A DNA stretch of 64,000 nt from Rhizaria sp. SCN 62-66 (Eukaryota). Positions 5,298 to 61,775 of this stretch are shown here, one piece after another (the stretch's first letter is position 1; every line of letters starts with the position of its first letter). The stretch is taken from NCBI GenBank assembly GCA_001724265.1, contig MEDY01000089.1, positions 1 through 64,000 of the forward strand. Reading direction: 5' to 3'. A model generated the notes under the pieces. It made no database searches, was not told where the DNA came from, and was given only the letters and a program-made list of their open reading frames with translations. A program made the translations under genes and the position numbers.

Positions 5298-8200
5298 TTA
5301 GTGAAAGTTGTGTTGCATTGTGTGATAGTATTCGCCTTCATACATCACCATCGACGGCCCATTGTCCACCGCATTCACGCTGCCGCCATTGACGGGGCCA
5401 GCAGTCGCAACTTCAACAGCGACCGCAGCAGCAGCAGCAGCAGCAGCAGTTTTCTCAGTGCCAGTCAGATCAGCAGCAGTGTTGGTAGTGTCGTCATCGT
5501 CGAGAACGATAACATCGTCAGCAGCAACAGCGTTAGCGCCAGTGGCAAGCCCTGCAGCAGTAACAGCAGCGCCATTGTTAGCCTCGTAACCGCTGCTTCC
5601 ACGTTCGCGACCAACACTGTCATTGACTTCATCATTGTCGTTGTCGCCGTCGTCGCCGTCGTCGTCACTGTCGCCGACCGAGCCCAGCACGAGCCGCAGC
5701 GGCTTGATGGCGTCTGACTGAGACATGACGTCGTAATCACCCTGTTTGTCGCCATGCACAGTTTTGGTGAGGGGATCTCCAAGATGACACTGCTGATTCT
5801 GTTTCTGCTGCAGTGGCTGCTATTGCTGATGCTGCGACTGCTGCTGCAGGTGCACCGATTGCTGCTGCTGCTGCTGCTGCTGCTACGAGTCACCACCGTT
5901 GCCGTCTATGAGCACGCTGTTGAACTGATGATAGTAGCCGCCGCTGCCTTGTCCAGGCTGCATTCGACCGAAATCCCCCCACCGGCAACCGCCACCGCCA
6001 TTGTCACAGGCGCTGTGACTCGCACTGTTCTTTGTGAGAGAGCTGTCGCCGTTGCTAGAGGTCATCAGCGACTGCGAGCGCGCAGTCCTTTGCTGTTGGT
6101 GCTGTTGTTCCTGTACAAGCAGCGGAGCAACGCTCACATCGGTGGCAGGAGTAACATTCGGGTTGACAGCAACAACAGCAGCAGCAAAAGTCTCTGAAAA
6201 GCGCCTCGCTACAGTCTCAGAAAAGCGGCGCCTCGCTACAGTGTGCCGCTCTGCGGGGGCGGGTGCGGCCACCGGTGACAGCGGCTGCAGCGGCGGCGGG
6301 CTCTGCGGCGGCGAGCCAGACCCGAACGCCGCGAACGCCGTGGTTTCGTGCGCGAGCGCGGTGTGGGACTGGCTCTGCATCTCCAGCTGCAGTCGCAGAA
6401 GCAGCTGCGCCTGCGCCTGTGCGCGCGCCTCTGCGCCCCCCGCCTCGGCCTCAGACCCAGTCTTAGCTTTAGTCATAGCGCCCGCGGCAGTCTGCGCATG
6501 CGCATGCGCCTGCGCCTGTTCCTGTTCCGGCTGAGACTCTTGTTGCGACTGCGGCTGCAAGTGCGGCGGCGACTGCTGTTGCTGCTGCATTGGCGAAGAT
6601 TGCGGTTGCGACTGGGATTGCGACATGAACAGGACGTACGGCTTGAGGTTAAACATCGACTGTGACTGTCCGAGCGCGTCTGCGTCGTCGGTGCGACTCG
6701 CATCGCTATATACAACGACGCTGCCGTTCCTATCTTTGGCGGCACTCGCACGAGCAGCTGTCGCAGCAGCAGCAGATGTCACACCGCTCGTCTTCACGGC
6801 CAGAGGGCTAGCGACTGCGAGAGCAGATAAGGTGCGAGAGCTCAGGTCGATCGCTGCCGTCGTCGTCGCGTGGCGGCTTAACTTAGCGCCGCCGCCGGCA
6901 GCAAGGCCGCGACTGTGACTGTCTCTGTTGACGCCAGTGTTACTAGAGCTGCGGTGCACAGTAGTGCTTCTGTAGTTGCTCTTGGTCATGATGATGTCGA
7001 TCATATCGACGTCATTCGCGCGTGTCCGGGGCGACGGGGTGTACCCCGTAATAATGACGCCTGGCGACACGTTGACGGCGCTCTCGGCGTCCGTTGCCGG
7101 CACGATCACGGCGTCATCACTCGCGTCACCACCGCCATCACCACCAGCAGCAGCGGCGGCGGCTGCCGCGGCGGCGCGTTCGGCAGCGGCCTTCTTGTCG
7201 GCCTCTGCGGCGGCCCTCAGAGCCAGCGCGGCGGCGACGCTCCTGGCAACCTCGGCGACACGGTCGCTCTGAGGGGGCTGCTTAGACTGTGGACTAAGGG
7301 GCGACGCGAGCTCGGCGCCGCCCTCAGCGCCAGCGCCAGCGCCAGCGTTGTCGTTGCCAGTGCCCGCGGTGATAGCGGCGCTTGTGAGAGCGTTTGCGCT
7401 AGGGGACATACTGGCCAAGCGACGCTTCTTCTGGCAACCACTGCCGCTCGCGGCAGCGTTGTCGCGGCTGCGGTCGCCGCAGTCCTCAGACTCTGAGCCC
7501 GAACCCGTCTTCAACTCGGACAGGCGCCGCTCACGAGGTGCTCGAGAGCGTGACTTGGAGGACAGCAACAGTCTCGACGCGGCGCCAGTGACATCATCGC
7601 CGTCACTGTCACTGCCGGTCTCGGAGTCCGTCCCGTTGACTGAGCTCGAGTTGGCGTCAGACTGCGTGAATCCGGTTGTCTCGTTGTTGACCCAGTAACC
7701 CTGAGGCGACGGCGCGCGCCCGAAAGCGAAGCCGCCTCGGTCCACAGCGGCGGTGGCGGTGGCGGCGGCAGTGGTTTTGGGGCTGCGGAACGCGGCCAAA
7801 CGGGCTCCGATCGAGAGATGAGGGCCGATACCGCCGGCACGGCCACCGCCGACGAGACCACCGCTGACGCCGCCGCGGCCGCGAGAGTTGCTGCCCGCGC
7901 TGGCGGCGTGTCTATTCGCAGCCGGAGGCCCATTTGCAGCAGCAGCAGCAGCAGCGCTCTCGGCGGCGGCGGCGAGGGCGGCGGTGGCGGGAGTGCCGCA
8001 GGCCGTCGCGACCGCCGAGGCCAACGAGCCCGCAAGGGACAGCGGCGCCGACTCAGTGCCAGCGCCAGCGCCAGTGCCGGTGAAAGCGCCAGTGCCAGCA
8101 GCAGCAGCGGCAGCGGCCGCGTTGAGCGGTGCAGTGAGGGCGCGCTTGAGGCCGCGGGACTGGGACTGGACGATGCTCTCACTGGTGATGCTGAGGTAGG

Positions 8201-10769
8201 CCGAGAGAGTCGCATCGCGGGCAGCAGCGGCGGCGTTTGCTCTGGTTCTGTTGTTGTACACTGTGTGAGGGTTGTAACTGGGAGCGTAGACGTTTCTCGA
8301 TCCGTATCCGCTATTTGAATTGTTGTTATAATGTTGCTGCTGCTGCTGCTGCGGTTGTTGATTCACGCTCGCAGCAGCACTCACTGCTTGACCGTTATCA
8401 TTGCAATGGCTGTTCACGTACAGAGCAAGAAACGGCACGGAAATCGCCTTGTCCCGGCCCGCAGCGGCTTGACTTTTCTTCGACGCGGCGTGACTTTTGT
8501 TCGCCTCGAGCTCGCCCCGCACGACGCCAACCGCGGTGCGCGCCGCGTCGGCTTCCTTCTGCAGCCGCAAATCGAGCTTGCTGAAGTCCTTCGCGGCGGC
8601 GGCGGCGGCGGTGGCAGTAGCGGCGGCAGCGGCGGCGGCCGCGGTCGCATGAGGGCCAGCGGCGACGGCAGTCACAGCGGCAGCGGCGGCAGCAGTGGCG
8701 TTGACAGTGGCGGCGGCGGCGGCGGCGGCGGTGGTCGCTGCTGCGGCCTCCGCGATAGCCAGTCGCGCGCTGCCAGAGGCCTCGAGGAAGGCGAGCAAGT
8801 TAAGCCGCCACTCGGCGGGCGTCGAGAGCACCGTCGCGGCCGCAGGGAACGTGATCGCGACCGTGGGCGTGACTGTGGGCTGCGGTTGAGAGATGTGGGG
8901 CTGAGAGCTGCGAGCTGCTGCTGCTGCTGCTGCGGCGGCGGCTGCTGTGCTGTTCGCGGCGGCTGAGGCGGACGCAAAGGGCGTGTCGGCGGCAGTTGCG
9001 AGACTGCTGTGACCGTTATCGTGACTGCCGTGGGTGTAAGGGGTGCCGAGGAGCCAGTCCATGACTGTGCTTAGGTCTCGGTCGCTAGGACTTGCACTTG
9101 CCCCATTTGCACAACTCTGCTCACAGCAGTCAGTCATTCGCACCTGTTGTTGTTGTTGCTGCTGTTGCTGTTGCTGCTTGTGGTATTGATAGCGACAGAG
9201 TGCGAGCGCGCGGGTGACAAAAGCCGCCTCGTGCGAAAGATAGGCCGCGTCACGCGAAAGGTAAGCCGTATCAGACGGAGAGTAGGCCGCAGAAGCGGAG
9301 GCCAAGGAACTGTGAGCACCTAATAAGTGACTGTGAGCGGCCGACAAGTGACTGTGGGCTGGGCCCAGGGCAATGTAGTGCGCAGTCGCAGCCAGAGGCG
9401 CGAGAATTTGCTGTTGTAGCTGAGCCTGAGCCTGCGGTTGAAGCTGAGGCTGAGATTGTAATTGTGCACTCGCACTCGAGCTTTCGTTGGCAGCGCGTGA
9501 TTGCTGCTGCTGCAGCTGTAGTGGCAAGCGAGAGCGTGAGTGTGACTGAGTACCCGAGCGCGTGGGAGTATGCAAGTGTGTTTGAGGATGCGAGTGACCG
9601 TGAGCATCCGAGGGACCGTGAGCATCCGCGGCACCGGCACCTGCCGCGATCAGCGACTCGAGCTGCACTGGCGCCCGCGCTGGCGCCTGCGCTGCTGCAG
9701 CATTCCCATTAGCATTATCACTGGCATTCGCATTAGCACTGACGCTGGCACTGGCACTGGCGGGGGCGGCAGCGGCGTCGGCGTCGGCGTCGGTGTCGGC
9801 GACAGACACTCCAGGGCTCGTTCGCGCGCTGCTATCGGCGTCTGCATTGTTGGCATTGATGTGATTGGTGATATTGTTATTGTTCTTATGCTCTTGTTTC
9901 AAAACGAGTGCGCGCTGGCAGTCAGGTGCGCTCTCAGTCGCCGCACTCGCCCCAGCCCCCGGCTCACTATCTCCCGTGTTTATCGTGTTGCCCGTGTCAG
10001 TCCCTTGCGCGTCAGCGGCGTCGGCGTCAGTGTCTTTGGTTATGTCGGTGTTTGCATGCTTTGGTGCCACGGCAGTAAATTCAGTCGCAGCAGATGTTGT
10101 AATCCCAACAGCTTTAACAGTGTCAGTCTCCGATTCAATCCCAGTATTTGCTTCAAATGCAGCAACAACAGCAGTCGTCCCAGCTTTCACGGGAGCGTCT
10201 CCAGCAGCGCCGGTGACAGCAATATCAAGTGCCTACTTCGCGGTGACACTGCAATTGTTGCCCCCCGAGCTCGTAACGACGGCGAGATACGCAGCAGACT
10301 TAGTTGTATGCGCTCCCGCAGCCGCATTCGGCACGTGCAACAACGCCGCTAAGGACGACGATGACGAAGACGACGATGAGGACGATGAGGACGGCACTGG
10401 CGACGCGGGCGCTGCAGCCGACGCCGCGTGCGGGCCATAAGCCAAGCCCGCGGAGCGCTGCTGCGAGAGCCGCTGCGACTGTGAACGTAAGTGCGAGTGC
10501 GAGTCCGACTGAGAGTCCGACTGAGAGGGCGACTGAGAGGGCGACTGAGGGGGCGACTGAAGGGGCGACTGAAGAAGCGACATCGGGAGCTGGAATACCG
10601 CCAGGCTCGCGAGGCGCGCTGAGGTATGCTCCAATGCGGCGGCGCTCTAACTGGCGCCGACACCGTCAACCGCTGTCAGTCCTGCGGCCGCGGTGTACGT
10701 GTCGGAGCCGGGACTGAGGCGCGGCGGGGCGGCGGGGCCGGCGCGGGGCGGGGAGTTGTCGGAGCTCAT
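5298..10769 (-). CDS. Intronless 1823-aa low-complexity (Ala/Ser/Gln-rich) hypothetical protein with four in-frame TAG codons
   Basis: ATG at 10769 (MSSDNSPPRAGP...). One frame joins track ORFs 10233..10634, 5883..10190 and 5298..5759. The only interruptions are TAG at 10649-10647, 10235-10233, 5885-5883 and 5822-5820. Ends TAA at 5300-5298, where AT-rich sequence begins. Confidence 0.8.
10501..10572 (-). repeat. Coding minisatellite, six 12-nt units (QSPL/QSPP/QSPS/QSDS)
   Basis: The plus strand reads GAGTCCGACTGA x2, GAGGGCGACTGA x2, GGGGGCGACTGA, AGGGGCGACTGA. Confidence 0.85.
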
Positions 10770-11227: not shown

Positions 11228-12020
11228 ATGAGTAGTGGTACGTGTCTATCTTTATTTACTCTGTGTTTCTCCCGGAACTCTACTCTTTGCCTACTTTGAC
11301 GCTCGTTGTTACCTTTCTCTGATCCCTCCACTGAAGTGGTTTCTCATCTGCTCACTATCATTCTTGCACTCCCATATCTCTCTCTCAATCATATATCCCG
11401 TATTTTATGCTGAATTTGACGCTTTTGTCTCCTCTTATCACCCTCACAGAGGACCCTAGCAACGCCGTACTGCCCCTGGCTCGCATCAAGCGCCTGATGC
11501 GCAGCGACGAGGATGTTCGTGTACGTGACAACTGTGCCGCATATATCTCGCTGAAATCAAAATGTTTATCTTAAAGAACAACAAGGAACACTTTTATAGT
11601 TATGATAAATCAATCTGTATAACTTTGTGACACAATGTTCTACTTTCACCGACTTGTGTCAATTTGCCATACTCACTTAATCTCACTCCTCAATCTCTCC
11701 CCCATTTGCCGCCCCTCGCCCGCCGCCACCACTGACAGATGATCTCCGCTGAGACACCCGTGCTCTTCTCCCGCGCGTGCGAGCTCTTTATCGCGGACCT
11801 GACGTCCGCGGCGCACGCGGCGGCGCAGCAGGACGGCGAGCGCATCCTCGACCGCAACCACGTCATGCGCGCGATCGCCACGGACCCGCGCTTCGACTTC
11901 CTCCGCATGGTCATGCCCGCGAATCCGGCTGCGACGACCGCGGCGGGCGCCGGAGCGGGCGCCGCTGGCGTCGGCGCGGGCGGCATGATGGGCGACGGCG
12001 ACGACGAGGATGACGAGTAA
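11228..12020 (+). CDS. NF-YC/HAP5-like histone-fold protein (CBFD_NFYB_HMF family), 120 aa
   Basis: Exons 11228-11237, 11450-11520, 11739-12020; both introns GTACGT...CAG. The spliced protein has [39 protein letters not shown]...FDFL, the NF-YC/DPB3-type histone-fold signature. Stop TAA. Confidence 0.88.
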
Positions 12021-13014: not shown

Positions 13015-16000
13015 TTAGTTCCTCCTGAACGACGCCAGTCCAAAGGCCTGCTCGCCGGTGGCTGCCAGCGTCGCCGCCAACGAGCCCTGAGCCCCCATAC
13101 CGCCACGGCCTTGGCCTTGCTGTTGCGGCTGCCGGTAATGTCCCTGTCCTTGCTGCTGCTGCTGCTGCTGCTGCTGGAGAGCGAGTTGCTGCTGCAGACT
13201 CATCTGCTGCGGCGGCGGCTGCATGCCCCCCCTCGGCCCCATCACAGGCCCGCTACTGATATTCCCCCCGCCGCCGCCGCCGCCGCCGCCGCCCTGAGGC
13301 AGGCGGGGGTTCCTGGCGACGAGGCGCCGCGCCTCACCCACCGTGCGCGGCCGGTCATACCCCGGCGGCAGCCGCCCGCCAGCAGCAGCGCCAGCGGCAG
13401 CGCCGCCGGGAGCGCTGAAGCCCTGGGGGCCGGCGCCGGCGCTGCTCGCGACAGGCACCGAGCCCGCGGTGTGGGCGTGGGCGGGGGCGTTGTTGTAGCG
13501 GGACACGGGGCCCGCGCGCGAGGCCGACTGGGAGCCGTACATCGGGCCCGCGGCGGCAGCGCTGCTGTTGTTGCTGTTGTTGACGGCCCCCAGGTCCAGG
13601 CGGTAGTCGCCCGCGCCGCCGCTGCTGCTGTCGAGGCGGCCGCGGCGGGGCGTGCCCAGTGAGCCCATTCCCAGTCCAGCGCCAGCGCCAGTGCCAGCGG
13701 CGGCGCGGGCGCCGGAGAGCGTGCCGGCGAGACTGCTGCCGGCGCTGAGCTTGGCCGCGTTCCCGTACATCAGTCCGCCGCCGCTAGGACCGTTGTGGCC
13801 AGCGCTCTGGCCGCTCTGGCGGTACACTGAGGACGGGTAGGGGGGCTGCACGGCGGCGTGGGTGTACTCGTACTCGTACACCTCGCCGCCACTGCCGCCG
13901 CCGCCGCCGTTGCCGTAGCCAGCGCCGCCAGTGTAGCCGTTGGCGTTGCCGCCGTTGCCACTGTTGAGCGAGTTGAGGTATGCACCGTAGCCGTTGTAGC
14001 CCGCGCCCTCCGCGCCGCCGGAGCCGCTGTTGTTGCGCGAATGGTGTGCGCTGCCGCTCGCAGTGCCAGCGCTGTACTGCGGCAGAGACTGCTGCTGCTG
14101 CTGGTGGTGCAACTCGTCGCTATAGTGCTGTTGCTGGGGCGGGTAGTCGGTGCCGCCGTAGTGCTGCTGGCTGCTGCTGCTGGTGTAAAACTGCCCTTGC
14201 TGCTGCGGGTTGTTGTTGTTGCTGAATGGACCGCTGTGGTGTTGGTTCGCATTGGCCGCGCCGTAGCTGGCGCCGGCGCCGGCGCCTCTGATGCTGTGGC
14301 TGTTGGGGTGGGGCGCCCCGCCCGCGGAGTACGACACGCGCATCCGCCGCTCAGTCGGCCCCGCGCCGCCGCCCTGGCCGCCGCCGCCGCCGCCGACGGT
14401 GCGGACAGGGACACTTACATTGCCGTGGGCGCCGCTTACATTGGCCGGAAGGGAGCCCGAGTTCGAGGCCCCCGCCAGGCTGTTGCTGAAGGGCCCGCTC
14501 CCGCTCGCCGCAGGAGCGGTGCTGCCCGCGATGCGCGCGCCCGAGGTACTTAGACTCGCGTGTAAGTACCCACCGCCGCCATCGTCGTTGTTGACGGAGC
14601 CAGCGCGCGCGGTCGAGGGCGTTCCGGGCGGCGCGTAACCCTGATTGGCGTGGGAATTCGTGCTTGCGTTCATCGCGCGCGCGGTGCGGGGGGTGCCCAG
14701 ACCCATCGCGTTGTTCCCACCGCCGCCGCCGCTGCCGCCGCCGCCAACAGGGACGTCGTCGTGGTTGTGGTACACCGCCGCGGGGGAAGCGCCGCCACCG
14801 CCACTGTACAAGTCAGCATTGTCGTTGCTGTTCAGGGGCCGCAGAGGGCCGCCAGAGCCAGGCCTGGAGGTCGTGCCGGTGCCGGCGCCAGAGTCAGAGC
14901 TCTGGTAGCCGCCGCCGCCGCCGTAGTGACCGTGGGTGTGACCGTGGGAGTGACCGTGAGCGGGGCCGCCGGGGTAATTGCCGTTGTCGTAGTTCTCGCC
15001 GGCGTTGCTGCTGCTAGCGTACTACCGGCTGTTGCTGTAGCCATTGTTGTACTGCTGCTGCTGCTGTAACTGCATTTGGTGTTGCTGCATTTGCTGCTGC
15101 TGCTGCTGCTGCTGGTGCGCGTACGTGTTATACCCGCCGCCCAGCAGCCCGCCGGTGCCGGATCCGCCCAGCTGCTCCCGCTTGCGCGCCTCCACGGCCG
15201 CGCGGTCGGTGCCGCCCGCGCGCCGCACGGCCGAAGCCATCTCGGCCGCGCGGCGGTCGGCCTCGGCCAGCTTGCGCGCCAGCATCGCCTCGCGGGTACT
15301 TAGACCGCCGGGGGTACTTAGACCGGGGCCCGGGGCAGGGGAGCTGAGACCACTGTTGTTGCTGCTGTTGGCGTTGCTTGCACCCGTGGTGGTCGTTGTG
15401 TGCGCGGTCTGGACGGGGTACTGCGAGTGCTGATGCAGAGTCGCCTGGTTGCTGTTCTGGTACTCCGAGCCAGCGCCAGAGCTAGAGCCAGAGGGGCCAG
15501 AGCCGAGGAGACCGTGAGCAGAGTGACCGTGAGCGGCGTCGTCATTGTTAGCCACAGGCGCAGGCGCAGGCACAGGGACCGATGCCCAGGACCGCTGGCG
15601 CACATGCGTCCTCCCCCCAGCGCCCGCGCCAGAGCCAGTGGAGCCGGGGCCGGAGCCGGGGGGCGGCTGCGGAGTCAGGAGACCGGGCCCGCCGTTGCCG
15701 TTGCCGTTGGGGGAAGTGAACGGCGAGGGCTGCGACGGCGGCCGCGGCTGCATCGGCTTTGCGCCACCAGAGGTTGAGTTCGCAACGCTGACACTGACGC
15801 CAGCGATCCCGGAACCACTTCCGCTCGAGGTCACAGCGGTGGCAGCGGCAGCGGGGGGCTGGGGCGACACCGGCAGCGGCGTGTCGTTGGTAACCACGGT
15901 GGGCTGCGGCGGGGCGCCGATGACGACGCCGCCGTGGATGCTGCTGTCGCCCGCGATGCGCGGCGTCGCCGAAGTACTGACACCAGAGGTACTTCCACCG

Positions 16001-18857
16001 CCGCTGCCGCTGCCATTAGCGGTGGGCGGCCGCGCGCGCGCGCTGAAGGCCCCGGGCGCCTCCGCGCCGCCGCGACCGCCGCTGCTGGTGCCGGGGCGGG
16101 GGCCGACAGGCCGCTCGTCGTAAGCCGTAGCAGCGTTGTGTTGCCGTGGGGGCTGCTGGGACTGGGACTGCGGCGGCTCGAAGGTCTCCAGGAGGGGGTA
16201 GGCGGCGGCGATGGCGCTGTCGAGCGCGGCCGAACCTGACAGCGTGGCCGTAGCGGCGGTAGCGGTGTGGGCGGTGATGGCAGCAGGGATCGGTCGGTCG
16301 ATGACAATACTAGCTGCAGTGATGTCATCGTCGTCGTCCTCAGGATTGCTATTGCCGTTGCCGTTGTTGTTGTGATACATGCCGCCGACAGGATCAGCGC
16401 CGGAGCCGGCGTGCGAGAACGAGTGCGCATTGCCGTGGCTGCCATCGGAGCCGTCGACGTTGTTTGACGCCATCCGCAGCAGCAGGTTGTCGGCGTCGGC
16501 CACGAACGAGTTGTTCACACCACCGCTCTTGCTGGTCTTGGTGATCGTCATCACGTGCCCGGTCTCAGTCGCAGTCCCAGTCGCACCAGTCGTGTTCGCG
16601 GCCGTGTTCGTGGTGGTGATCAGCCCGGGTGCCAAAGGCTTGCGCTCCGCGATAAGCGTGCCGTTGGGGCCGAGCACGGCCTGCACGGGGAACGCGTCCG
16701 TGCGCCACATCGCGCTGTCATCCACGTTCACGGCCGCCACGCCCGCGCTCACCACTGGGGCGCCCGCGATCTCAAAGCTGGCGCCAGCGATCGGGTTGCC
16801 GTGAGCGTTGACCTTGATGGTGTCGCCGCTACGGACTGTGGTGGTGCCGCCAGCAATAGCGTTGACGTTGCCATTGGCAGTCGTGAGCGCGCTCGTCGTG
16901 TTGGAGGCGCCCGGCAGCGCTTTGCCCTCGTACACGGCCGTATCGGGGTACAGCTCCGCCGCGGCCGCGCGCGCCGCCGCCGCCGCAGCGCCGTTGGTGG
17001 CGTTGGCGGGGCCGTTGACCTGAGCGTAGTCCTCGAAGTCGTCGGCGTACTCAGTGTCGCCGAGCTTGTTGTTGATGCTGGCTTTATTCCCAGCGTTGGC
17101 GTCATTGCTGTTGGTCTGGTTCGCAGCAGCAGCAGCAGCAGCAGTGGTGTTGTTGGCGGTGGGATAGGCAGACGCTGGGAGCCCAGCCGCCGCCGCAGCC
17201 GCAGTCGCCGTCGCGTTCGCATTGGTGGCAGTGCTGCTTGACTCCTGCGCGTTGCTGTTGTTGCTGTTGTTGTTTGCGCGCAGCTGCTGCTGCTCGCGGA
17301 GATGCTGCTCCCACACGGGGTCGACCTCGAGCGACTCGCCCTCGGGCCACGAGCACCGCGCGTCGAGCACGCGCAGTCTCGCCAGCGCCTCGTGCACGTC
17401 CGGCCGGTCGTCGGGGCTTTTAGACAACAGCGCGTCAATCAGGTCGCTCAGCCCCGTCGAGTACAGTGACCCGATGCCCGGGAGAGCCTTGAGCGGCGTG
17501 TGGGGCTCCAGCACGATGAGCCGCACCAGCGACAGGATGTTGTTGGCCTGAGAGAGATAGAGAGTCGAGATCAAAGCAAAAGAGTGAGAAAGATGGATTC
17601 GAGGATTCGAGGACGTATAACTGAGAATACGACAATACAATGATTTAAAGAACTAAAAAAGATTTAAAAGGAGCATAGAATACATAAAGTTACATGCTAC
17701 ACAGTTGTAATGTCTTTGCATGATCGATTACAGTCTGACTGCAAGCCGTACCTGGAAGGGCCTCTCAAGCGCGCAGAGCTCGTACAGCACGACTCCGAGC
17801 GACCAGATGTCGCTCTTATAGTCGTAGGGCTGCGCCTTGGCCAGCTCGGGCGAGAGGTAAAAGGGCGTGCCGCACTGCGTGTTTGCGTTGTCGAGCGTGT
17901 TGTCCATCTTGCGGGCGACGCCAAAGTCGGCGAGCTTGACCTCGTTCTCGGCCGTGAGCAGGATGTTGGCCGTCTTGATATCGCGGTGCAGCACCTTGCG
18001 GTCGTGCAAGTAGCCCAGCGCGAAGCCCGACGACAGCGCCCAGTGCAGCACGCGCTTCTCGCTGAAGTGGCGCCGCCTCATGAACGCCTCGTTGCACTTG
18101 CCGCCGCCGAGCGGCGACACGCCGGGCTTCACACCGCCGCCGCTGCCGCCGCCTCCGCCGGGTTTGCGGGCCGCCGCGGCCGCCGCGGCAGCCACGGCGG
18201 CGGGCCCCGCGGCGCGCTCGGCCTCGTTGCGCGGCAGCGCGGCGCGGTGCGCGATGCGGACGGCGAGGTCGCGGCCGGCAGCGTACTCCATGACGATGGC
18301 GACGACGCGCTCGCCGGCCTCGAAGGCGCCGTAGACTTTGATGATGTTGGGGTGCTTCATCGCCTGCAGCAGACGCGCCTCGCGGACGGCGGCGCGTGTG
18401 GCGGCGGCGTAGGCGGCGGCGTCCGAGGCGGCCGAGCCCGCGGAGGCGTCGGGCTGGATGGTGACCTCTTTGAGGACGATGCGTGTGCGGTTCTCATCCT
18501 CGGCCAGATAGACCGTGCCGTAGCTGCCGCGGCCTGGAGACACACACAAAGGGACAGAAAGAGAGAGAATAGAGCAAAACAAAACAGAAACACACAGGAA
18601 AATGAACAAGGGGAGTCGAAAAGAGTTGGAGAGAGCGAGCGAGGACGAAACGTTGGTCAATAAGCGAGACGATATAAGATGAAGGACGACGAACCAAGTA
18701 CACCGAGTTTGTGGAAGCGAGCGCCGCTGCCACCACCGCCACTGCCACTGCCACTGCTGGCAGCGTTGCTGTTGCTGCTGCTCGCAGTGGTCGAGACGTT
18801 GTTGTTGCTGCCGCCGCTCGGAGGTGGCAGCGCTGGCCCCATCGGTGGCGCTGACAT
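13015..18857 (-). CDS. NIMA-related Ser/Thr kinase (NEK family) with very long disordered C-terminus, 1825 aa, one in-frame TAG
   Basis: Exons 18857-18695, 18533-17752, 17547-13015 (introns GTTCGT..CAG, GTACGG..CAG; total 5478 nt, divisible by 3). Motifs LGRGSYGTVY, VLK, HRDIKTANILL, DFG, CGTPFYLSPEL, DIWSLGVVLYELC. TAG at 15024-15022 joins track ORFs 15022..17640 and 13015..14811 in frame. Ends TAA. Confidence 0.9.
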
Positions 18858-49700: not shown

Positions 49701-50047
49701 GCGTCGACGGCGGCGGCGACATCACCACAGGCCTCACACACGCCGGCCAAAGCACCCACGACGGCGTCGACGTTGAGGGCGACGGTGGCAACGGCTCCGC
49801 GGCCAACGCACGCTGCGCTGCTGCGATGACCGCGGTGGAGCACGAGGCCGCGAGTGCTGCCGCCGCGGCCGCCTTCATCACCTCCGCGCGCGAGCGCGCC
49901 GCTCTGTTGGCGCAGTCGGCGCACGGGCTCGCGCTCGACCTGGACCTCATGCCGCCGCCCGCGGCCGTGGGGGACAACCACGGCGGCGTGGGCGACGCGC
50001 TCAATGGCGGCAAGAAGTGGGCTCATGAAGACGCATTTGGCGAGTAA
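19755..50047 (+). CDS. Giant (~10,050 aa) cell-surface multi-pass membrane protein: signal peptide, three ~735-aa repeats, long beta-rich region, 8 Sushi/CCP, EGF-Ca, IPT/TIG, Cys-rich repeats, ~9 TM helices
   Basis: ATG 19755 with signal-peptide-like MQRSCARYTTIFAGLFLCVTFLFPANA. +1 frame change near 23850-23860; in-frame TAG 31846-31848; one phase-0 intron 39412-39538 (GTACGT..TAG); stop TAA 50045-50047. Sushi C-C-W-C pattern ~40660-42435, DVDEC...CINTYGSYVC EGF-Ca, P-I-x-I..GG..I.L.GTNFG IPT motifs, CxxCPxGT(Y/F)S repeats ~43950-44330, TM helices ~45240-45610 and ~48365-49060. Confidence 0.82.
20450..26800 (+). repeat. Three diverged ~735-aa (~2.2 kb) internal protein repeats in the giant gene
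   Basis: Recurring anchors: DFAIYPVG 21309 / DFVIYPVG 23517 / EFSIHPMV 25414; CATRY 22419 / CSNRY 24319 / CDARY 26551; PSYTF / NYYTF / ASYTY / NYFYY at unit starts. Visible only at protein level; boundaries approximate. Confidence 0.7.
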
Positions 50048-51113: not shown

Positions 51114-53849
51114 TCACATATCCTCATCTTCTACCCTCGATGCAAAGTTGCAATGTATGATTGACACATTGGCATTGTATACACCGACACTGCATTTTTC
51201 AGTCCCACAGCGCGCCTGGAAGTGTCGCAACACCGTCGCATCGAACGGCTTGTTCCCGCTGTCGTGCGCCGCAGGCATAATGCCATCCACGCACGACATC
51301 ACGCGGCCGACGGGCACGGCGCCGTGCAGCAGACTCACGGGGCACGGCTTGAACACGATGAACCACGGCGTGTCGCCGGGGCCAGGTTGACTGCACCAGC
51401 GCTTCAAGGGTTCGGAAACCACAGATCGCGGGCACACCAGCACTGTGCCAACGGGGTGCGTCCCGGCGGCGCCCGCAGCAGTCTCGGGGAGCTCGCCGTA
51501 AACGGCGTCGCTCGCGGGCAGCGCGACGGCGGACGCCGCGTTGCACGGGAGCTGGTGATCGCGGCCCTCGCCGTGGTAAAGCGTAACAAAGGGCAGCGAC
51601 GCAGCCGCGCGGTCGGGAGGCACGAAACACGTGTGGAGCAGAGCACCGAGCGCGTACGAGTCAAGCGCAAGGCGGAAATGCGCGGCGTTGCAGGGAAACC
51701 TTTTGTCGTTGAGCCGGATGACGAGACTGTACGTGTGCTGCGCCTGCAACTCGCTGTCGATCACCATCGACATCGTCATCACAACGTCCGCAGTCATGCG
51801 CTCGGCCCCCAGCCTCTCCCAAGCATCGACGAGCACGCGCTCGCGCGCCCTCGCCTGCAACAAAGCCAGCGCAGCCGCGCTTGGCGCGCCGTTAACGCGT
51901 TGCGGGGGGACGGGAGTGACCGCGAGTGAACGCGTGTGGATATTGTACGCAATCCGCCGGGGAAAACCGCTTTCTTCACGACTGCACGCAATGTGGGCAT
52001 CGAACGCGGCTTGCCAGTCATCCTGATCCTGCTCCTGCTGCTGCTGCTGCTTTGCGTGTGCAGTCGTCTGGTGACCGCCGTGCTGCATGAATGCACGCAT
52101 CTCAACGAGGGCTTGTTGACGCGACTCCTCTGTCGCGGCGGCTGTGTCGGGCGCAATCACATTCATCCGCGCAAGCAGCGCGCGCAGTTGCGTCAGCTCG
52201 TGCAACACAGTGCAACCCCCGTCCTAGGCGCGCAGGCAGGCGTCGTAGCGCAGCAGCTCGAGCGCCTGCAGCCCGCGACAGGCGATGAACTCGGTCACGA
52301 AAGGGTTCCACGCCGCGATACCGCTGTCGCGCACAGTCAAGTCGGGCGAGGTGTCGCTGGTGCAAATCAACAAGTTGAGCAGGTGCAGCAGCTGTGCGAT
52401 GCGCCGTGCACTCGGTGGTGCTTCGGGACCCTCTTGACTCGGCGGCGGCAGCAGAGAGCGCTTCAGGAAGGCGCAGCACGTACCGACGGCGCCAGCCGCG
52501 AGCAGCTGTAGCGCCGCGCACGCCACGTCGGAGCTGCTCATCAGAACACTCTCAAACACAGAAAGCGTGCTTTTGAGAAACACTTCAGAGTTGGACTTAT
52601 AGTCACTGTAAAAATGATCATCAATATAGGCCAACAGTCGCTCGAAATATGGCGCCGTTGAGAGACGCTGAGCAAAACCAGAGACGTAAGCTGCAAAAGC
52701 GGCAAAGAGCCTCATTCGAAAGATCGCATTTTTCATCGTTCTAATCTTTTTCTCGTTAATCTCGCTGATCACGAGCTCAACGCGGCGCTCATTGAACGCG
52801 AGACTAAACGTCTCTGCATCAAACAAGTCGAGAAACATCTCCAGTGCGGGCGCCATAAGTGAGTCCAATTCCTCCAACATCGGCTCAAAGTCTTCACTGG
52901 CCGCAAAGTCCGCAAGGTCACTCCGCCACTGCTCTGCAACGTCAGAAGCATCACTAGGTGCGCCATCGCAATTGCCAGGGCCATCGCCGTTTTCGCTTTT
53001 GTTGTTATTGTCGCCACCACCCTCGAGATTGCAGCCGCAGGCAAAGATGCTCGCCAGCGCATCGCAGGCGGCGCGGTTGATGTACACGTCAATGCCGCCG
53101 AGCGCAGTGCGGCGCTGCATGACCTGGCGCCACAGCGGGACAAAGGCCGAGACGGCTGAGTACGGCAGCCGGGTCACTGCGGCCGCTGCTGAGGCAGCCG
53201 CTGCGGAGGCAGCCGCTGCCGAGGCGGCTGCAGCGGCTTCAGCGGGTTGGCTTGGGGCTGCTCTCAGCAGCGCGACGAAGCACTTGGACATATCGCAGTA
53301 GTTTGAGTCGCCCCGCCTCATTGACGACGGGCTGGCCAGCTCGAGCTGCGCGCTGTGCATATACCAGAACACGTGCTCCAGGGCGGCAAGCGCGGCGGAC
53401 GCCGGGATTGTCGCCTTGCGGGCTATATTTACGATGATGCGGAAGACGAGGGCGACACGTTTGGGGTTGCTCTGGGGAGCACTAAAACAAGGCAGGAGAG
53501 CAGTCACCTGCTCGACGGCGCCGCACGCGATAAGACAAGCCCCGCCGTCGTCGGTGCTGGCAATCAACTGAAGCAGCGCCAATGTCATCCAAGCGCGCTC
53601 CTTGCGTCCTGTTGTCCTTGTCCTGGAGAGCTTGCTCCCCCCCGCGTGGGCGGTGTAGGCGGCTTGCATGAGCCACTGCAGGAGCAGTGGAGCAGCACCG
53701 CTTTCGCTGAGAATTTCTGCCGCGTCGGGACGCTCCTGACAAACGGCATTAAGCTCGAGCAAAGCAGCGTCAAGATCGGCTGCTGCCAGCGAAGTGACCC
53801 GGCTGATCGCGACGTGGCAGCTTTCAAGGGACAACTCAGAGGAGCTCAT
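51114..53849 (-). CDS. 911-aa protein: ARM/HEAT-like helical N-terminus plus degenerate cyclophilin-like C-terminal domain; one in-frame TAG
   Basis: ATG 53849. Track ORFs 52224..53849 and 51114..52208 share a frame and are separated only by TAG 52226-52224 (LRA*DGGCTVLHEL). Ends TGA 51116-51114. ARM-like motifs SESGAAPLLLQWL, IACGAVEQVTALL, LAAGAVGTCCAFL. The C-terminal RLNDKRFPCNAAHFRLAL...HPVGTVLV...WFIVFKPC..LLHGAVPVGRV follows cyclophilin motif order. Confidence 0.72.
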
Positions 53850-55003: not shown

Positions 55004-55045
55004 CGCGGCTTAACTTACTCGAGGTGACGCGGCTTAACTTACTCG
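55004..55045. repeat. 18-nt direct repeat duplicating the LSm14 stop-codon context
   Basis: CGCGGCTTAACTTACTCG at 55004-55021 and 55028-55045. Confidence 0.85.
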
Positions 55046-57165
55046 CGCCAGGCGCCGCCTTTGCTGGCGCCGCCCTTCTTGGCGTGGCCGTTGAGCCCAA
55101 ACGCGTCGTCGTTGTCGTCGTCGTCACCGAAGTTGTTCTTGAAGCGAGGCTTATAGTCGTCGTTGTTGTTGTTGCCGCTGCCGCCACGGCCGGCGCCGCG
55201 GCTATTGTTACCGTCGCGGCCGCCGTCATTGTTGCTGCCGCTGGCGTAGTAACTGTTGCGGTAGCCGCCGCCGCTGCCGCCGTCGCGACTGTTGTTGCCG
55301 TCACGGTTGTTGTTGCTGCGGAAGTTGCCACGGTCGTTGTTGTTATTATTATTATCACGGTTGTTGCGGAAAGTGCCACGGTCACCGGAGTTGTTGTTTC
55401 CGTTACGGTTGAAGCCACGGCGGTCGTCACCGTTGTTGTTGCTGCGGAAGTTGCCACCGTCGCGGTCACGGTTGTTGTTGTTGGAGCGATCACCGCCGCG
55501 GCTATTGTTGTTGTTGTAGCCGCCGTTGCGGTCACGGTTGTTGTTGTTGTTGTTGTTGTTGCCGCCATGATACCCGTCCGCGTTGTTGTTGTTGTTGTTG
55601 TTATTGCGGTACTTATCGTTGACAGCGCGCACCTCCTCCTCGCCGAACGCCTCGCTGTCCTTCTTCAGGCCGCCACGGCCGCCGACATGGCCGCCGTAGC
55701 CGCCGCGGCCGCTGTGGCCATGCCCGCCGCCGGCCGCCGCGGCGCTGTGGCTGCGTGTGTTGACGGAGCTCGATATCGAGTCGAAGAAGGACGCCTTCTT
55801 GTCGTACACCTTGATCGCGGGCACAGTGACAGGCTTGCTACCGTCAGCAGCGTCGCCCGCGAGCGCGGCGGGGGCGGAGCCGTCAGCGCCGGCGGCCGCG
55901 GAGGAGGAGGATGCGAGAGACAGGTCGGCGAGCTGGGACTTGATGAACTGGCTCTTGTCGAAGAGTTGGTTCGAAGCCGCGATGTCGAAGTCCGGCTTAA
56001 CTTCCACCGGCGGCTTAACATTCGAAGCAGCAGCGCCACCGGCAGCCTTCTTCGAGCCAGCGCCAGCGGCGGCGCCGGCGGGGGCAGGGATGACGGGGCC
56101 GGAGGAGACGATGGCCGAGTCGGCCGCGGCGATCTTGCTGATCTTGGCGATCTCCTGGAGCCGGAACGTCACGAAAGTGGTGATGCCCGGCGTCTCGGCC
56201 ACGGCGGCAGGGTCCCCGGCCGGCACGCGCGCCTCCGTGCCCTTGACGGTGACGTTGTTGAGTGTGATCGTCTGCGTCGCGTTGTCGATGGCGGAGACGA
56301 CACCGACGTACCGCACATGCGCCTTGGTGACAACGGACATCGTGAGGCCGATGTAGTTCATCGCGGACGGCGCGGGCGCGGCAGCAGCGGGGGCCGCGGG
56401 CGCGGCAGCGGCGGCGGCAGGGGCCGCGGCAGCGGCGGCGGGCGCAGCAGAGGCGGCAGCAGGAGCGGCAGCGACGGCGGGGGCAGCGGCGGCGGTGGCG
56501 GCAGCAAGCTTAGCGGCGGCTGAGCCAGGGGCGATGCCGGTGTAGCTAGCAGCAGGAGGAGCAGCGCCAGCAGCAGGGGCGGCGGCGGCGGCACTGGCGG
56601 GGGCGGCGGCAGGGTTGGGCGGGGTGTAGTAGAGTCCGTGGGGGGCGAGGTGCCCGTGGGCCGCCGCGGAGGCGCCGTGAGCGCCGTGGTGCGGCGCAAG
56701 CCCGGGCGGCATGCCCATGCCCATGCCGCCCATGCCTGGCAGCCCGTGGACGGGGATGCCGTGGCCGCCGTGGAGGCCGTGTGCGCCATGGGGGCCGTGC
56801 GGTGAGGCGACGCCGTAGACGCCCGGCGGGGGGATGCTGTAGTAGCCGCCCGGAGGGAAGCCGCCGGCGCCAACGTAGGGCGGCGGCGCGAGGCCCTGTC
56901 CGGGGTTGGCGGCGCCCGGGGGCGGCGGGGCGTGTTGGTAATGCGTGGGGGGCGCGTAGTGAGGGTTTGCGTGGGGGTGGTAACCGCCGCCTGCGTGGCC
57001 GGCGCCGGCGGGGCCGGTGTGGGGCGGGTAGGCCATAACGCCGGGGGGCGCGGTGCCGGCGGCGGCGCGGGACGCGGAGGAGTTGCCAGCGTTGCCGCCA
57101 GCGTTGCCAGCGGCAGGGGCGGCGGCGGCGCCCTGGGGCCGCTTGGGGTGGGGTTGGTTGGACAT
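55039..57165 (-). CDS. LSM14: LSm14/Scd6/RAP55 P-body protein, 708 aa
   Basis: ATG 57165, TAA 55041-55039, intronless. LSm14 domain (YIGLTMSVVTKAHVRYVGVVSAID...ITLNNVTVKGTEAR...FVTFR), DFDF-like PDFDIAASNQLFDK, FFD box YDKKASFFDSISS, TFG-like DSEAFG, RGG/Asn-rich tail. Confidence 0.9.
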   Translation of the reverse strand: MSNQPHPKRPQGAAAAPAAGNAGGNAGNSSASRAAAGTAPPGVMAYPPHTGPAGAGHAGGGYHPHANPHYAPPTHYQHAPPPPGAANPGQGLAPPPYVGAGGFPPGGYYSIPPPGVYGVASPHGPHGAHGLHGGHGIPVHGLPGMGGMGMGMPPGLAPHHGAHGASAAAHGHLAPHGLYYTPPNPAAAPASAAAAAPAAGAAPPAASYTGIAPGSAAAKLAAATAAAAPAVAAAPAAASAAPAAAAAAPAAAAAAPAAPAAAAPAPSAMNYIGLTMSVVTKAHVRYVGVVSAIDNATQTITLNNVTVKGTEARVPAGDPAAVAETPGITTFVTFRLQEIAKISKIAAADSAIVSSGPVIPAPAGAAAGAGSKKAAGGAAASNVKPPVEVKPDFDIAASNQLFDKSQFIKSQLADLSLASSSSAAAGADGSAPAALAGDAADGSKPVTVPAIKVYDKKASFFDSISSSVNTRSHSAAAAGGGHGHSGRGGYGGHVGGRGGLKKDSEAFGEEEVRAVNDKYRNNNNNNNNADGYHGGNNNNNNNNRDRNGGYNNNNSRGGDRSNNNNRDRDGGNFRSNNNGDDRRGFNRNGNNNSGDRGTFRNNRDNNNNNNDRGNFRSNNNRDGNNSRDGGSGGGYRNSYYASGSNNDGGRDGNNSRGAGRGGSGNNNNDDYKPRFKNNFGDDDDNDDAFGLNGHAKKGGASKGGAWRE

Positions 57166-57917
57166 GGGGTGCGCCAACAAACTAAGCACAAAGCGGGAGA
57201 AAGAGCACGGTTATAGATGGATAAAGAGGTGAGGTGTCATATATATGTGTGCGATTGGCGAGGAGGCGCAGGGAAATGGCGCGAGAGAGCCACGAAGTTG
57301 GGGGCCAATCAAGGCGCTCGAGGCGAAGGGCGAGCCTGCCAAAGAAAAGAGATACATCGTCGCGAAAGAGCAAGAGTATAATGAATAAAGAGAAGACTGC
57401 GCAAGATCTATGTCTGTTTGTTGTGGAAAGAAGGACTAGATCCGCGCAGAACGGTACTTTCATGATTCGCCCGTTTTCAAAAATAATATTCACAGCCAGC
57501 CACTGTTCTTCGATGGACTGACTGAGTCGGTCGTCGGTCGTGACTCTGTTCGTGGTGGAGCTGACTGACTGTGAGCGACCTAACTTTGCTCTCAGCGAGT
57601 CAACAAACCGGACTGTGAGCAGCCAGCCAGCTTCGGCCAGAGACTCAGAGGGTGGCTTTCGAGTGAGGTTTGCAGCGCGTCGTGTGCGTTATATCGCTCG
57701 TGTGATAGATTCGTAGTTTTTTTATTAGCGAATATACGTCGTATTCTACCAGTGAATATTATTCAGTGGTCTCTATGCGCTCACTAGTGCCCACAATTGC
57801 TTCAACAATACCTCGCCCCAATCCTCACTCACCCCCACGCCACTCTGCCCACAACTTCGCCGCTTCCCTGCTCACCTTTTCACTTCTCCGTGTCTGCTTT
57901 TGCTGCCCACAGTTCCG

Positions 57918-58371
57918 ATGGCCGGTGACCCGATCCCTTCCAAGCGCCCCGTGATGCCCCGCATGGAGACCTGGTGGACCAAGTACCGCCACGTCTCCGG
58001 CATGGTCGTCGAGACCATCTCGCCCCACCGCCAGAAGATCATCACCCCTCTCTTCCGCAACATCCCCACCAAGCTCGGCCACCACGCCGCCTCCGTCGCG
58101 CCCGCCGTTCCCTTCCTCCTCGGCTACCTCGCCCTCAAGGGCTGGCTCACCGAGTACGTTCCACACACACTCTCTCAATGCTACTCACTTGATAGAGGCA
58201 GTTGCTCATGCTTCGCTCTGTCTCGTCGCAGTCCGGTTCTATTAGGCTTTCGCGTTGTATCCATGAATATTTGCTCACGCTTGCTCTTCTACTATCCTTT
58301 CATTCTTTTGTGCTTTTGTTTTGCGCGTCCACAGGAAGGCGGACAAGATGCACCGCTCCCACTGGGATTAA
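57918..58371 (+). CDS. Probable cytochrome bc1 complex subunit 8 (QCR8/UQCRQ-like), 90 aa
   Basis: Exons 57918-58153 and 58335-58371 (intron GTACGT..CAG). GMVVETISPHRQK resembles the QCR8 G-I-x-x-Y-x-L-S-P-x-x-Q motif, followed by a single TM segment and a short basic tail. Strong GC3 bias; stop TAA. Confidence 0.65.
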
Positions 58372-59309: not shown

Positions 59310-61270
59310 ATGTGGTCTCGCCTCCGCCTTGCCCGCCCCCTCGCGGCGCGCTCCGGCCTTGCCACCGTGACCTCTGCGCTTGCCACCCAGCGCCTTGCCA
59401 CTGCCGGCCCTCTTGCCGCCCCCGCGCGCCCGCTCTCCCTCGCCAGCCTCAGCTCCAAGCCTGCGACTATGAAGACGGGCTCGACTGCAAAGCCCTCCTC
59501 TTCTGCGTTCGCCCGCATTACCCTGACGCGCCTCGTCTCGGTCACCTCTGTCGCCGCGGCCCCCGCCCGCTCCGTGTCGGCTTCCGCAGCGCTGTTCAGC
59601 TAGCCGCAGGGTGTCGTGATCGACATCGACCCCACCGCGACCGCGCGCGTCACCTCCTCCTACCCCTCCTCCGCCGCCAACTCGAGTGACGCCAGTCCAA
59701 GCTCTGGCACGGACACGACCGAGGCGGACGCGGACCTGCGCACGGCGCTGCTCACGCAGGCGCTGGCGTATGTGCCTGACTACGGCTGGAGCGACGAGGC
59801 GCTTCTCAAGGCTCTCGCAGACAATGGGCTCTCGGCCTCGAGCTTCGGTTTGTTTCCCAACGGCGCAGGGGACCTGGTCGAACACTTTGTCGCCACCGCC
59901 AACGCCGCCACTATCAACCAAATCCAGGTATGTCTTCACACTTTACTACAAAAGAAGGGAATATCTTGCTATGAAGTTGTTTTATCCCGTTTTATGTTCG
60001 TTTGAAGTCGCATGACGCTATGCTAAAGTTGTCTCATGCTTTAAAGCTCACTTGACACTTGCTATGTTCTTTTGTCGTTCCGACCCTCACAGGACCGCCC
60101 CGACTTCGACACGATGCGCACCCCGGCGCTGCTGACGGCGGCGCTGCGTCTGCGTCTGGAGCAAAACATTCCATACCTGCCCCGCCTCTCGCAGGTACGT
60201 CTTGTTGGATCGTAACTTTGAGCGAGGATATCTCGCGCCTGTCACAACATATTGTGTTTATTTTACAACATTTCGGTATATTATACATGTATTTGTATAT
60301 AAATATTGTTTTATATCCATATAACTCAACTATGCTGACGTATCTCCCTTCTTGTGTCCCCGCCCTCGTGTTTGTTCACACTCGTCCCCTCTCAGGCGCT
60401 GTCCGTGGCGCTGCGCCCGTCGGCCGTGGCGCCGCTGGCCACGCACGTGGGCTGGCTCGTGGACGACCTGTGGCACCTGGCGGGCGACACGGCGACCGAC
60501 TCGGCCTGGTACACCAAGCGCGCCTCGCTGGCCGCGGTGTATCTCGCCACGGAGCTCTACATGATTACCGACAAGTCCCACGGGTTCCAGGACACGTGGG
60601 CCTTCCTCGACCGCAGGATGAAGGTACGGGCTTATGTTTATTGCCTCATTGACAGAGCTACCCAGAAGATAAACAGTGAGATGCCGTGTTATCCTCCGGG
60701 GTGCAACTTCAAAACTATTGCTCAGCCACTTTATGACGATTTGACTCTCTTCATTGATGTTATTTCAGAATTTTTAGATTGAAATAATGAGTTTTGCTGA
60801 CTTCGATTTTTCTGTTTTTAATATCCTCTCACACAACATCTATTTGCATTCTCTGTATCTCAATCATCCTTCCCTCCCACTCTCTAGGACGCGGCCTCCG
60901 TGTCCACGCTGCCCTCGCAGGCGCAGGACACCGTCGTCAAGGTGGCCACCACCGCGGGCGAGATTGTCGCACGCATTATGGCCGACTTCGCCCCTCAGGG
61001 CGCCTCGGGGGCCGCCGCCTCCGCCGCCGCCTCGGCCTCAGCGGCCGCGAGCTCGATCACCGCCGCGTTCTCCAACGTCGTCTCCAGAGTCGCCAGCAGC
61101 GCCAACAACAACGCCAATACCGCGAATACTCACAGTGCCACTGCTGCCGGTGCCGCCGCCGGCGCTGCTGCGGGGGCAGCCGTTGACGCCGCCGTTGACG
61201 CCGCCGCTGGCGCTGCTGCCGGCGCCGCAGCCGGTGGCACTGATGCCATCAAGGCCACGGCCGACGCCGC

Positions 61271-61305
<35 letters not shown>

Positions 61306-61775
61306 CTGCTGCTGGCGTTGGCGCTGGAGCTTTCGGCTCGAACCCGAGCAGCAACGGCGCTAGCGCGAACGCTGGAGGCGCTAGTCACAACAACAACAAC
61401 AGCAACCCCATTGCTGGCGGCGATTTCGTGCGGAACCTCTTCACCAACGTGACGGCCGCCGCCTCCGCGCTGCCGCTGCCGCCCGCGGCGGCCTCGGCGC
61501 TTAACTCGGCCTCCGCCGCCGCCGCCTCGGTCGCCGGCTCCGTCGCCGACAAGGTCTCCGGCGCGGTCGCTGGCGCGGGCGCTGCGGTGCCCCAGTCGGC
61601 TCAGTCTGTGGCTCAGTCACTGGGGGCTGCGGCGGACAGCTTCGGCCGCACTGTGGGACAGACCGTGAGTCAGACCGTGGGCAGCTTCAGGGAGGGCGTT
61701 GCCAAGGGCGCGGGCTCCACAGGCTTTCAGCAGCAGGCTCAGTCTCAGTCGCAGGCGCAGCAGGCGAAGCCTTGA
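59310..61775 (+). CDS. COQ9: Mitochondrial ubiquinone biosynthesis protein COQ9, 611 aa, with an in-frame TAG just after the presequence
   Basis: Exons 59310-59927, 60093-60194, 60396-60623, 60888-61775 (1836 nt). Motifs ALAYVPDYGWSDEAL, LFPNGAGDLVEHF, VDDLWHLAGD..DSAWYTKRASLAAVYLATELYMITDKS.GFQDTWAFLDRR. Arg/Ala/Ser-rich presequence; TAG 59601-59603; stop TGA. Confidence 0.92.

Follow-up and report, generated by a model that had tools for sequence, protein, structure and literature searches.

In-frame TAG codons in a eukaryotic nuclear contig point to a probable change of UAG alone from stop to sense

A nuclear DNA window with eight in-frame TAG codons

The DNA studied here is a 64,000-nucleotide stretch of contig MEDY01000089.1 (Rhizaria sp. 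SCN 62-66), called the window below. It is eukaryotic nuclear DNA in which GC-rich coding blocks, biased towards G or C at third codon positions (GC3-biased), alternate with AT-richer spacers (GC range 48–70%), and it occurs in metagenomes of bioreactors and wastewater from several studies, 2015–2025. Five of the nine gene models in the window contain in-frame TAG codons. The sequence suggests that UAG is probably translated in this organism while UAA and UGA terminate: that is, a stop-to-sense change of the nuclear code that concerns UAG only. Eight in-frame TAGs had been reported in an initial annotation of this DNA, and all eight are present at the coordinates and on the strands given there.

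Half of the TAGs lie in gene A (5298..10769, minus strand; 1,823 codons of low complexity, no Pfam family, ending in TAA). These are TAG 1 (10647..10649), which is codon 41 from the first ATG; TAG 2 (10233..10235); TAG 3 (5883..5885), which heads a run of eight glutamine (Gln, Q) codons; and TAG 4 (5820..5822), within a Gln-rich stretch. Gene B (13015..19020, minus strand; intron 17548–17751; ending in TAA) encodes a NEK-type protein kinase (Pkinase, E 1.5e-48, with NEK names among its matches) whose best non-self matches, at 36–38% identity, come from scattered eukaryotes; the Atlas linked it to generic kinase clusters alone. The kinase carries a long low-complexity tail, and the TAG at 15022..15024 lies within it. 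A giant surface-protein gene (19752..50047, plus strand; ~10,000 codons; intron 39412–39655; ending in TAA) runs from a signal-peptide-like start through novel repeats, Sushi and Ephrin_rec_like domains to a TRP-like (PF06011) multi-pass membrane end; its only in-frame TAG (31846..31848) falls in a poorly conserved linker. In gene C (51114..53849, minus strand; 911 codons, no Pfam family, ending in TGA), the TAG at 52224..52226 divides an N-terminal part of 541 residues from a C-terminal domain that is conserved. Finally, the COQ9 gene (59310..61775, plus strand; exons 59310–59927, 60093–60194, 60396–60623 and 60888–61775; introns of 165, 201 and 264 nt; ending in TGA) has a TAG at 59601..59603, between the presequence and the COQ9_N domain. 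The identity of COQ9 is given by PF08511 (E 1.1e-28) and COQ9_N (27.1 bits against a cut-off of 27).

Seven spliceosomal introns were found in the window. All are AT-rich and 165–264 nt long, rather than the 111–264 nt first proposed, with a 5' GTAYGT or GTRNG and a 3' pyrimidine tract followed by YAG. The triplets that follow the eight TAGs are as first described (AGC, GCA, CAG, CAG, TAC, GAC, CCC and CCG) and share no common motif.

TAG is the only stop codon found in frame

Across the nine coding segments (15,565 codons), the gene frame holds 8 TAG, 0 TAA and 0 TGA codons, in keeping with the earlier claim that neither TAA nor TGA interrupts the gene models. The other two frames of the same segments contain 41 and 118 TAA, 24 and 70 TAG, and 296 and 231 TGA (totals of 159 TAA, 94 TAG and 527 TGA). 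The in-frame count is partly circular, because TAA and TGA were used to delimit the open reading frames (ORFs). To control for this, we collected, in all six frames, every single stop with an open stretch of 120 codons or more on either side in the same frame. This gave 9 TAG, 25 TGA and 0 TAA. All 25 TGA cases fall off-frame or antisense, and none has a flank longer than 475 codons (largest pair: 475 and 242); the nine TAG cases consist of five of the sites described above, one TAG in the giant gene's intron, and three antisense. Open flanks at the gene-frame TAGs measure 2714 and 2533 codons in the giant gene, 876 and 668 in gene B, 137 and 1449 at TAG 2 of gene A, and, for a further site, 548 and 369.

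When codon usage is scored after training on the giant gene, the gene frame (frame 0) comes out best on both sides of the TAG at six of the eight sites, TAG 2 of gene A among them; the result is ambiguous at 5885 and 5822, both of which lie within CAG repeats. The continuity of frame and codon bias that had been claimed for every TAG stands for six. Support for the remaining two comes from the 173-codon tail past TAG 5822, which is open in 174 of 20,000 shuffles.

No gene has been found to end in TAG. Nine gene ends could be fixed in the window, seven of them TAA and two TGA; the earlier tally was 11 (eight TAA, three TGA), likewise without a TAG. In related loci, described below, none of 11 different giant-ORF ends is TAG, all being TAA or TGA (12 entries, with L005 and L006 the same); the locus ends belong to homologous genes and hence are not independent, and the gene-end sample is small.

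Needed protein parts lie beyond the TAG codons

The predicted COQ9 protein (start at 59310) opens with 97 residues of presequence, rich in Arg and free of acidic residues, after which the TAG is codon 98. Both the COQ9_N and the COQ9 domain lie 3' of this TAG, and the remainder of exon 1 offers no in-frame ATG. In the giant gene, the signal-peptide-like start is ~4,000 codons 5' of the TAG, and ~6,000 stop-free codons follow 3' of it, including the Sushi, Ephrin_rec_like and TRP-like membrane parts. In gene C it is the conserved domain that sits 3' of the TAG: the last ~230 residues are 53% identical (E 2e-57) to the end of a B-box gene in one of the related loci (L013). Judged from the gene sequences, translation must very probably pass the TAGs of COQ9, the giant gene and gene C.

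The TAG codons are present in independent assemblies

The COQ9 TAG at 59601 is spanned, with 0 differing letters, by DNA contigs of run X3 (another study, 2017) and run X4 (a third study, 2025), and contigs from three studies, dating from 2015–2025, share this allele. In gene C, the product cut at TAG 52226 (P0005, 541 residues) occurs on four contigs from JGI/IMG and ENA; among the pieces listed in the contig comparison, none is a DNA contig that bridges this TAG.

A TAG that is present in DNA could still be removed or changed in messenger RNA (mRNA), through short in-frame introns or through U-to-C editing. In favour of such a process, none of the RNA pieces listed bridges a TAG, and record 29 of run X7 stops 44 nt short of 59601. 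Since X7 record 30 covers an unspliced intron, the X7 library holds DNA or pre-mRNA. The seven introns themselves speak against removal, being AT-rich, at least 165 nt long and opened by recognisable 5' motifs; the surroundings of the TAGs are GC-rich and coding-like, with coding-frame scores, unlike every intron found in the window, and none of the eight TAG sites falls within an intron-like stretch. With regard to editing, no other letter was seen at 59601–59603 or 52224–52226 in four runs, two of them RNA-type, although a missing row is no proof. We consider removal or editing in mRNA hardly credible.

Relatives carry further in-frame TAG codons

Relatives were sought by a metagenome scan with the giant gene's last exon as query, which returned 14 loci that are 43–64% identical. 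They add six in-frame TAGs in two genes, and 0 TAA and 0 TGA. The first gene, in L003, has 3 TAGs in 2,726 codons: two lie inside Sushi domains with conserved flanks and one in a private insertion. The second stands beside the giant gene in L013 and encodes a B-box, a coiled coil and an end of the gene C type; it has 3 in-frame TAGs in the 797 codons that follow an intron acceptor, and one of these TAGs separates the final two zinc-binding His residues of the B-box zinc finger. A search of 1.84 billion representatives with the 797-residue L013 query matched 87 at E <=0.001 and 72 at E <=1e-10, most of them to the last ~230 residues. Two of the homologues found, P0148 (85% identity in the alignment, along the whole L013 gene) and P0150 (76%), are intact and read across the places of the L013 TAGs; downstream of all three, the L013 gene is still 85% identical to P0148.

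Window and relatives together thus hold 14 in-frame TAGs, and no TAA or TGA. How surprising this is depends on the share of TAG among nonsense changes. Under the GC3-rich codon usage of the window, 59–64% of single-base nonsense changes yield TAG, and eight of eight stops would be TAG by chance with P = 0.014–0.028; taken alone, the "TAG only" pattern is suggestive against chance, not decisive. For 14 of 14, the chance is ~0.6^14 to 0.64^14, or ~0.001–0.002, with the window shares assumed for the loci.

It is against these figures that the standard code must be considered, under which the TAGs would be nonsense alleles, signs of decaying genes, or errors of assembly or base calling. TAG is the likeliest nonsense codon, as just noted, and arises from CAG by a simple transition; most of the TAGs in the window fall within linkers or sequence of low complexity. 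In addition, the reading frame of the giant gene moves from 0 to 1 near 23830–23870, and this, the only pseudogene-type sign found, means that either the assembly or the giant gene is not flawless. There is no low-scoring, intron-like gap at 23830–23870, where the coding score changes frame gaplessly. An intron as the cause of the switch at ~23.85 kb was rejected: 84 GT..AG pairs would keep the frame open, and none is of the window intron type. The switch reflects an indel in the assembly, a genuine frameshift or sign of a pseudogene, or else two ORFs that overlap.

Other observations are difficult to bring under the standard code. Five of nine genes would be affected, COQ9 among them; all 14 stops in window and relatives would have to be TAG; the same TAG would recur in contigs of three studies and two repositories; and thousands of stop-free codons would persist beyond the TAGs, with the L013 gene retaining its 85% identity to an intact homologue past three of them. 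Pseudogenes and nonsense alleles were rejected on three grounds, namely the 14 of 14 TAGs, the conservation of downstream domains and the allele shared by three studies. The standard code is, in our estimation, very improbable.

We favour translation of UAG because the TAGs are present in DNA, the reading frames run on past them, needed protein parts lie downstream, and no gene end examined is TAG. The initial proposal of a sense UAG beside UAA and UGA stops is well supported, in that the TAGs occur in intact and partly essential genes and reappear in other assemblies and in relatives.

TAG is rare, and no tRNA gene was found

A number of observations weigh against UAG being a sense codon, or at least a settled one. 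Firstly, none of the eight window TAGs occupies a conserved position of a known domain, and TAG 10649, the weakest site, lies 40 codons past gene A's first ATG, with the next ATG 22 codons on, and could be inside a 5' leader. Secondly, TAG makes up 8 of 537 (1.5%) of the CAG, CAA and TAG codons in the window. The ratio of TAG to CAG is 0.019, against 0.38 for the analogous T/C pair TTG/CTG; TAG is ~20 times rarer than expected of a settled sense codon. In the published ciliates with UAG as Gln, UAG accounts for 18.5–31.8% of Gln codons and ~80% of genes have a UAG (PMC11687900). Thirdly, nine distinct giant ORFs of the relatives contain 0 TAG in 29,087 codons. Fourthly, tRNA scans of the 64-kb window and the 14 loci (~139 kb) found no tRNA gene of any kind; an Rfam scan of the window likewise gave no match, and the window contains no eRF1 gene. 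The low use of TAG points to a recent change, or to decoding that still carries a cost.

These observations bear most directly on the possibility that UAG is formally still a stop, passed by efficient readthrough with near-cognate tRNAs or read ambiguously, depending on context. This explanation is kept alive because TAG is rare and avoids both conserved positions and most giant ORFs, as if decoding were costly or incomplete. The failure to find a tRNA with anticodon CUA, tRNA(CUA), also fits, though only the 64 kb and ~139 kb mentioned were scanned. It is harder to reconcile with single genes that carry 3–4 TAGs, which would seem beyond what ordinary low-level readthrough could sustain; with a TAG early in COQ9 and another within a B-box; with eight 3' contexts that have no motif in common; and with the lack of TAG among the nine window gene ends and the 11 ORF ends of the loci, unlike ambiguous codes. 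Overall, we judge a UAG that is formally a stop to be quite unlikely. Programmed stop-codon readthrough was rejected as a candidate: a single gene can have as many as four TAGs, some lie close to the N-terminus (codon 98 of COQ9; the L013 B-box), and the eight 3' contexts in the window differ.

If UAG is indeed translated, then by the usual mechanism of such codes it would be decoded by a tRNA with anticodon CUA, or by an altered near-cognate tRNA, and the release factor eRF1 would no longer recognise UAG efficiently. We put forward, tentatively, that the reassignment may be at an early stage, in a eukaryotic lineage without a sequenced relative. At such a stage UAG would be gone from gene ends and translated, yet kept from most ORFs of 5,000–6,000 codons and from conserved positions.

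The residue inserted at UAG is probably polar

Two of the eight window TAGs lie in a Q-rich context, compared with 1.3% of all positions (P 0.0046). A poly-Q context is equally expected from CAG-to-TAG mutation alone, and because descent from CAG gives the same picture, it leaves the residue undecided. At the giant gene's TAG (31846) no residue can be named from the relatives, the surrounding region being poorly conserved and L013 gapped there; for gene C, no homologue that spans the TAG was found beyond the organism's own cut product, P0005.

Five TAG positions in the relatives can be aligned with homologues. The homologue residues are G, E, T, S and N at L003:947; S, A, S, S and S (Ser in four of five) at L003:1859; D, K, D, G, G, D and G at L013:21037; R, Q, Q, R, R and R at L013:21169; and L, Q, E, P, P, L and P at L013:21853. 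Q fills 3 of these 30 homologue cells. BLOSUM column log-odds for the five positions score Glu (1.23), Ser (1.16) and Gln (1.11) alike, followed by Lys (0.47), Leu (-2.85), Tyr (-3.3) and Trp (-4.5). Among close homologues, P0150 has Q at two of the three L013 TAG sites. The alignments indicate a polar residue at UAG and disfavour Leu, Tyr and Trp.

Given a sense reading, we consider Gln somewhat more probable than the rest, which falls to Glu, Ser or Lys. Gln is favoured because of the poly-Q context and precedent only: UAG and UAR changes lead to Gln more often than to any other residue (PMC11687900, PMC5304391). The initial assignment of UAG as most likely Gln goes further than the alignments, in which Gln does no better than Glu or Ser and appears in few homologue cells. 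The possibility that UAG specifies another polar residue (Glu, Ser or Lys) shares the sense reading and differs in the residue alone. The log-odds above allow it, the TAG at L003:1859 stands opposite Ser in most homologues, and both UAG as Ser (Scotinosphaera) and UAG as Glu (an oligohymenophorean ciliate) have been published (PMC11687900). It accounts less readily for the two window TAGs in Q runs, for the two Q residues of P0150, and for the precedent in favour of Gln; five aligned sites are too few to decide. On balance, we regard one of the other polar residues as possible, if rather unlikely.

Known UAG-only codes

Very few lineages are known in which a nuclear code has changed UAG without UAA (PMC5304391, PMC11687900). 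UAG is read as Gln in Iotanema spirale and as Leu in the rhizarian exLh (PMC5304391); it is read as Gln in the ciliates Hartmannula, Trochilia and Protocruzia, as Leu in phyllopharyngean metagenome-assembled genomes (MAGs) from TARA, and as Ser in Scotinosphaera (PMC11687900). The initial annotation was correct that few are known; its list omitted Protocruzia tuzeti (Gln) and Scotinosphaera (Ser) (PMC11687900), and it made no mention of the rarity of TAG in the window. The window organism is probably a further member of this very small known class, unusual in its sparing use of the codon.

Iotanema spirale (Fornicata) resembles the window organism in that UAG alone is sense, UAA is the main stop and UGA is kept (PMC5304391); here, seven of nine gene ends are TAA. 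Unlike the window organism, in which UAG is rare, it is an anaerobic metamonad (PMC5304391). COQ9 (PF08511, E 1.1e-28) and QCR8 (E 0.0014) point to an aerobic mitochondrion in the window organism and against an anaerobic metamonad, as first argued. The ciliates Hartmannula sinica, Trochilia petrani and Protocruzia tuzeti share a UAG-only change to Gln (NCBI table 15) with UAA as preferred stop, and for H. sinica and T. petrani, too, UAG as Gln was deduced from genome data, no tRNA(CUA) having been detected (PMC11687900). They differ in their heavy use of UAG, quantified above (PMC11687900), against 1.5% here, and in that the present evidence is a multi-gene 64-kb stretch of 48–70% GC with introns of 165–264 nt; a ciliate ancestry of the window organism is unlikely. 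In exLh and the TARA phyllopharyngean MAGs, UAG is likewise decoupled from UAA (PMC5304391, PMC11687900), but is read as Leu, which scores -2.85 here against +1.1 for Gln. An independent origin of the code change in the window organism is plausible.

In-frame stop codons are reportedly sparse in Amoebophrya sp. ex Karlodinium veneficum. As in the window, typical stop codons there encode amino acids in a nuclear genome; unlike in the window, where only UAG does so, UAA, UAG and UGA are all found in frame (PMC6394959). Our literature search, which covered neither subscription journals nor supplements, turned up no eukaryote with UAG-only recoding that is GC-rich or comes from wastewater.

If the sense reading is true, an aerobic, GC-rich, intron-bearing eukaryote would be added to the lineages in which UAA and UAG are uncoupled, and its very low use of the codon would show reassignment at a seldom-seen stage, one that is early or costly. 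Should the stage indeed be early, the order in which UAG is lost as a stop, a tRNA is gained, eRF1 changes and the codon spreads would be directly observable. There is also a practical consequence. Standard gene callers cut genes at TAG (P0005 ends at the TAG of gene C, and P0149 starts past the last TAG of the L013 gene), and wastewater eukaryote bins of this lineage would therefore be mis-annotated.

Further features of the window

The giant gene contains ~6,500 residues of Thr/Ser-rich repeats without a Pfam family. Its TRP-like end has 17 database relatives, all metagenomic and none informatively named; the large surface-protein family has no named homologue among these matches. No relative of the giant protein turned up in contigs of bacterial and archaeal genomes or in viral contigs.

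The ~230-residue C-terminal domain shared by gene C and the L013 gene (window 51117–51800, minus strand; L013:22660–23325) belongs to no Pfam family, gave no usable match in the Atlas, and carries motifs that include FPxNAAHFR and PWFIVFKPC. Its N-terminal partners vary, from a helical 541-residue part in the window to a B-box and coiled coil in L013. Judged by eye only, it recalls a degenerate cyclophilin-like fold.

Two TAGs that appear in ORFs are splice sites. The TAG at 60885–60887 is the acceptor of COQ9 intron 3, and the first TAG of the L013 ORF (20932) is likewise an intron acceptor (...gtgttag, then TGTTGC). Because some TAGs are acceptors of this kind, ORF-based TAG counts must drop such sites.

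Four gene models have no TAG, and all of them end in TAA. A histone-fold (CBF/NF-Y-type) gene lies at 11470..12020 on the plus strand (PF00808, 26.4 bits; intron 11521–11738). The QCR8 gene (57918..58371, plus strand) has an intron at 58154–58334 that is borne out by a spliced contig of run X5; its identity comes from plant-type QCR8 chains in the PDB (E 0.0014) and from a Pfam match (E 4.5e-4) below the cut-off. The last exon of Rpb6 (RPABC2) lies at 62082..62621 on the plus strand (Pfam, E 4e-12; PDB RPABC2, E 8e-33). The fourth is an LSM14/Scd6-like gene (55039..57210, minus strand; E 1.6e-13), whose ORF has ~280 Pro/Ala/Gly-rich codons before the LSm domain and an Asn-rich, RGG-like tail. 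The LSm domain of LSM14/Scd6 proteins is normally N-terminal, and the true start may be the Met that directly precedes it.

Across the 20 kb compared between studies, only seven single-letter differences are listed. Relative to the window, run X4 lacks 17 nt at 58675 and 3 nt at 57628, and has 9 nt inserted after 49272. The population looks nearly clonal through ten years.

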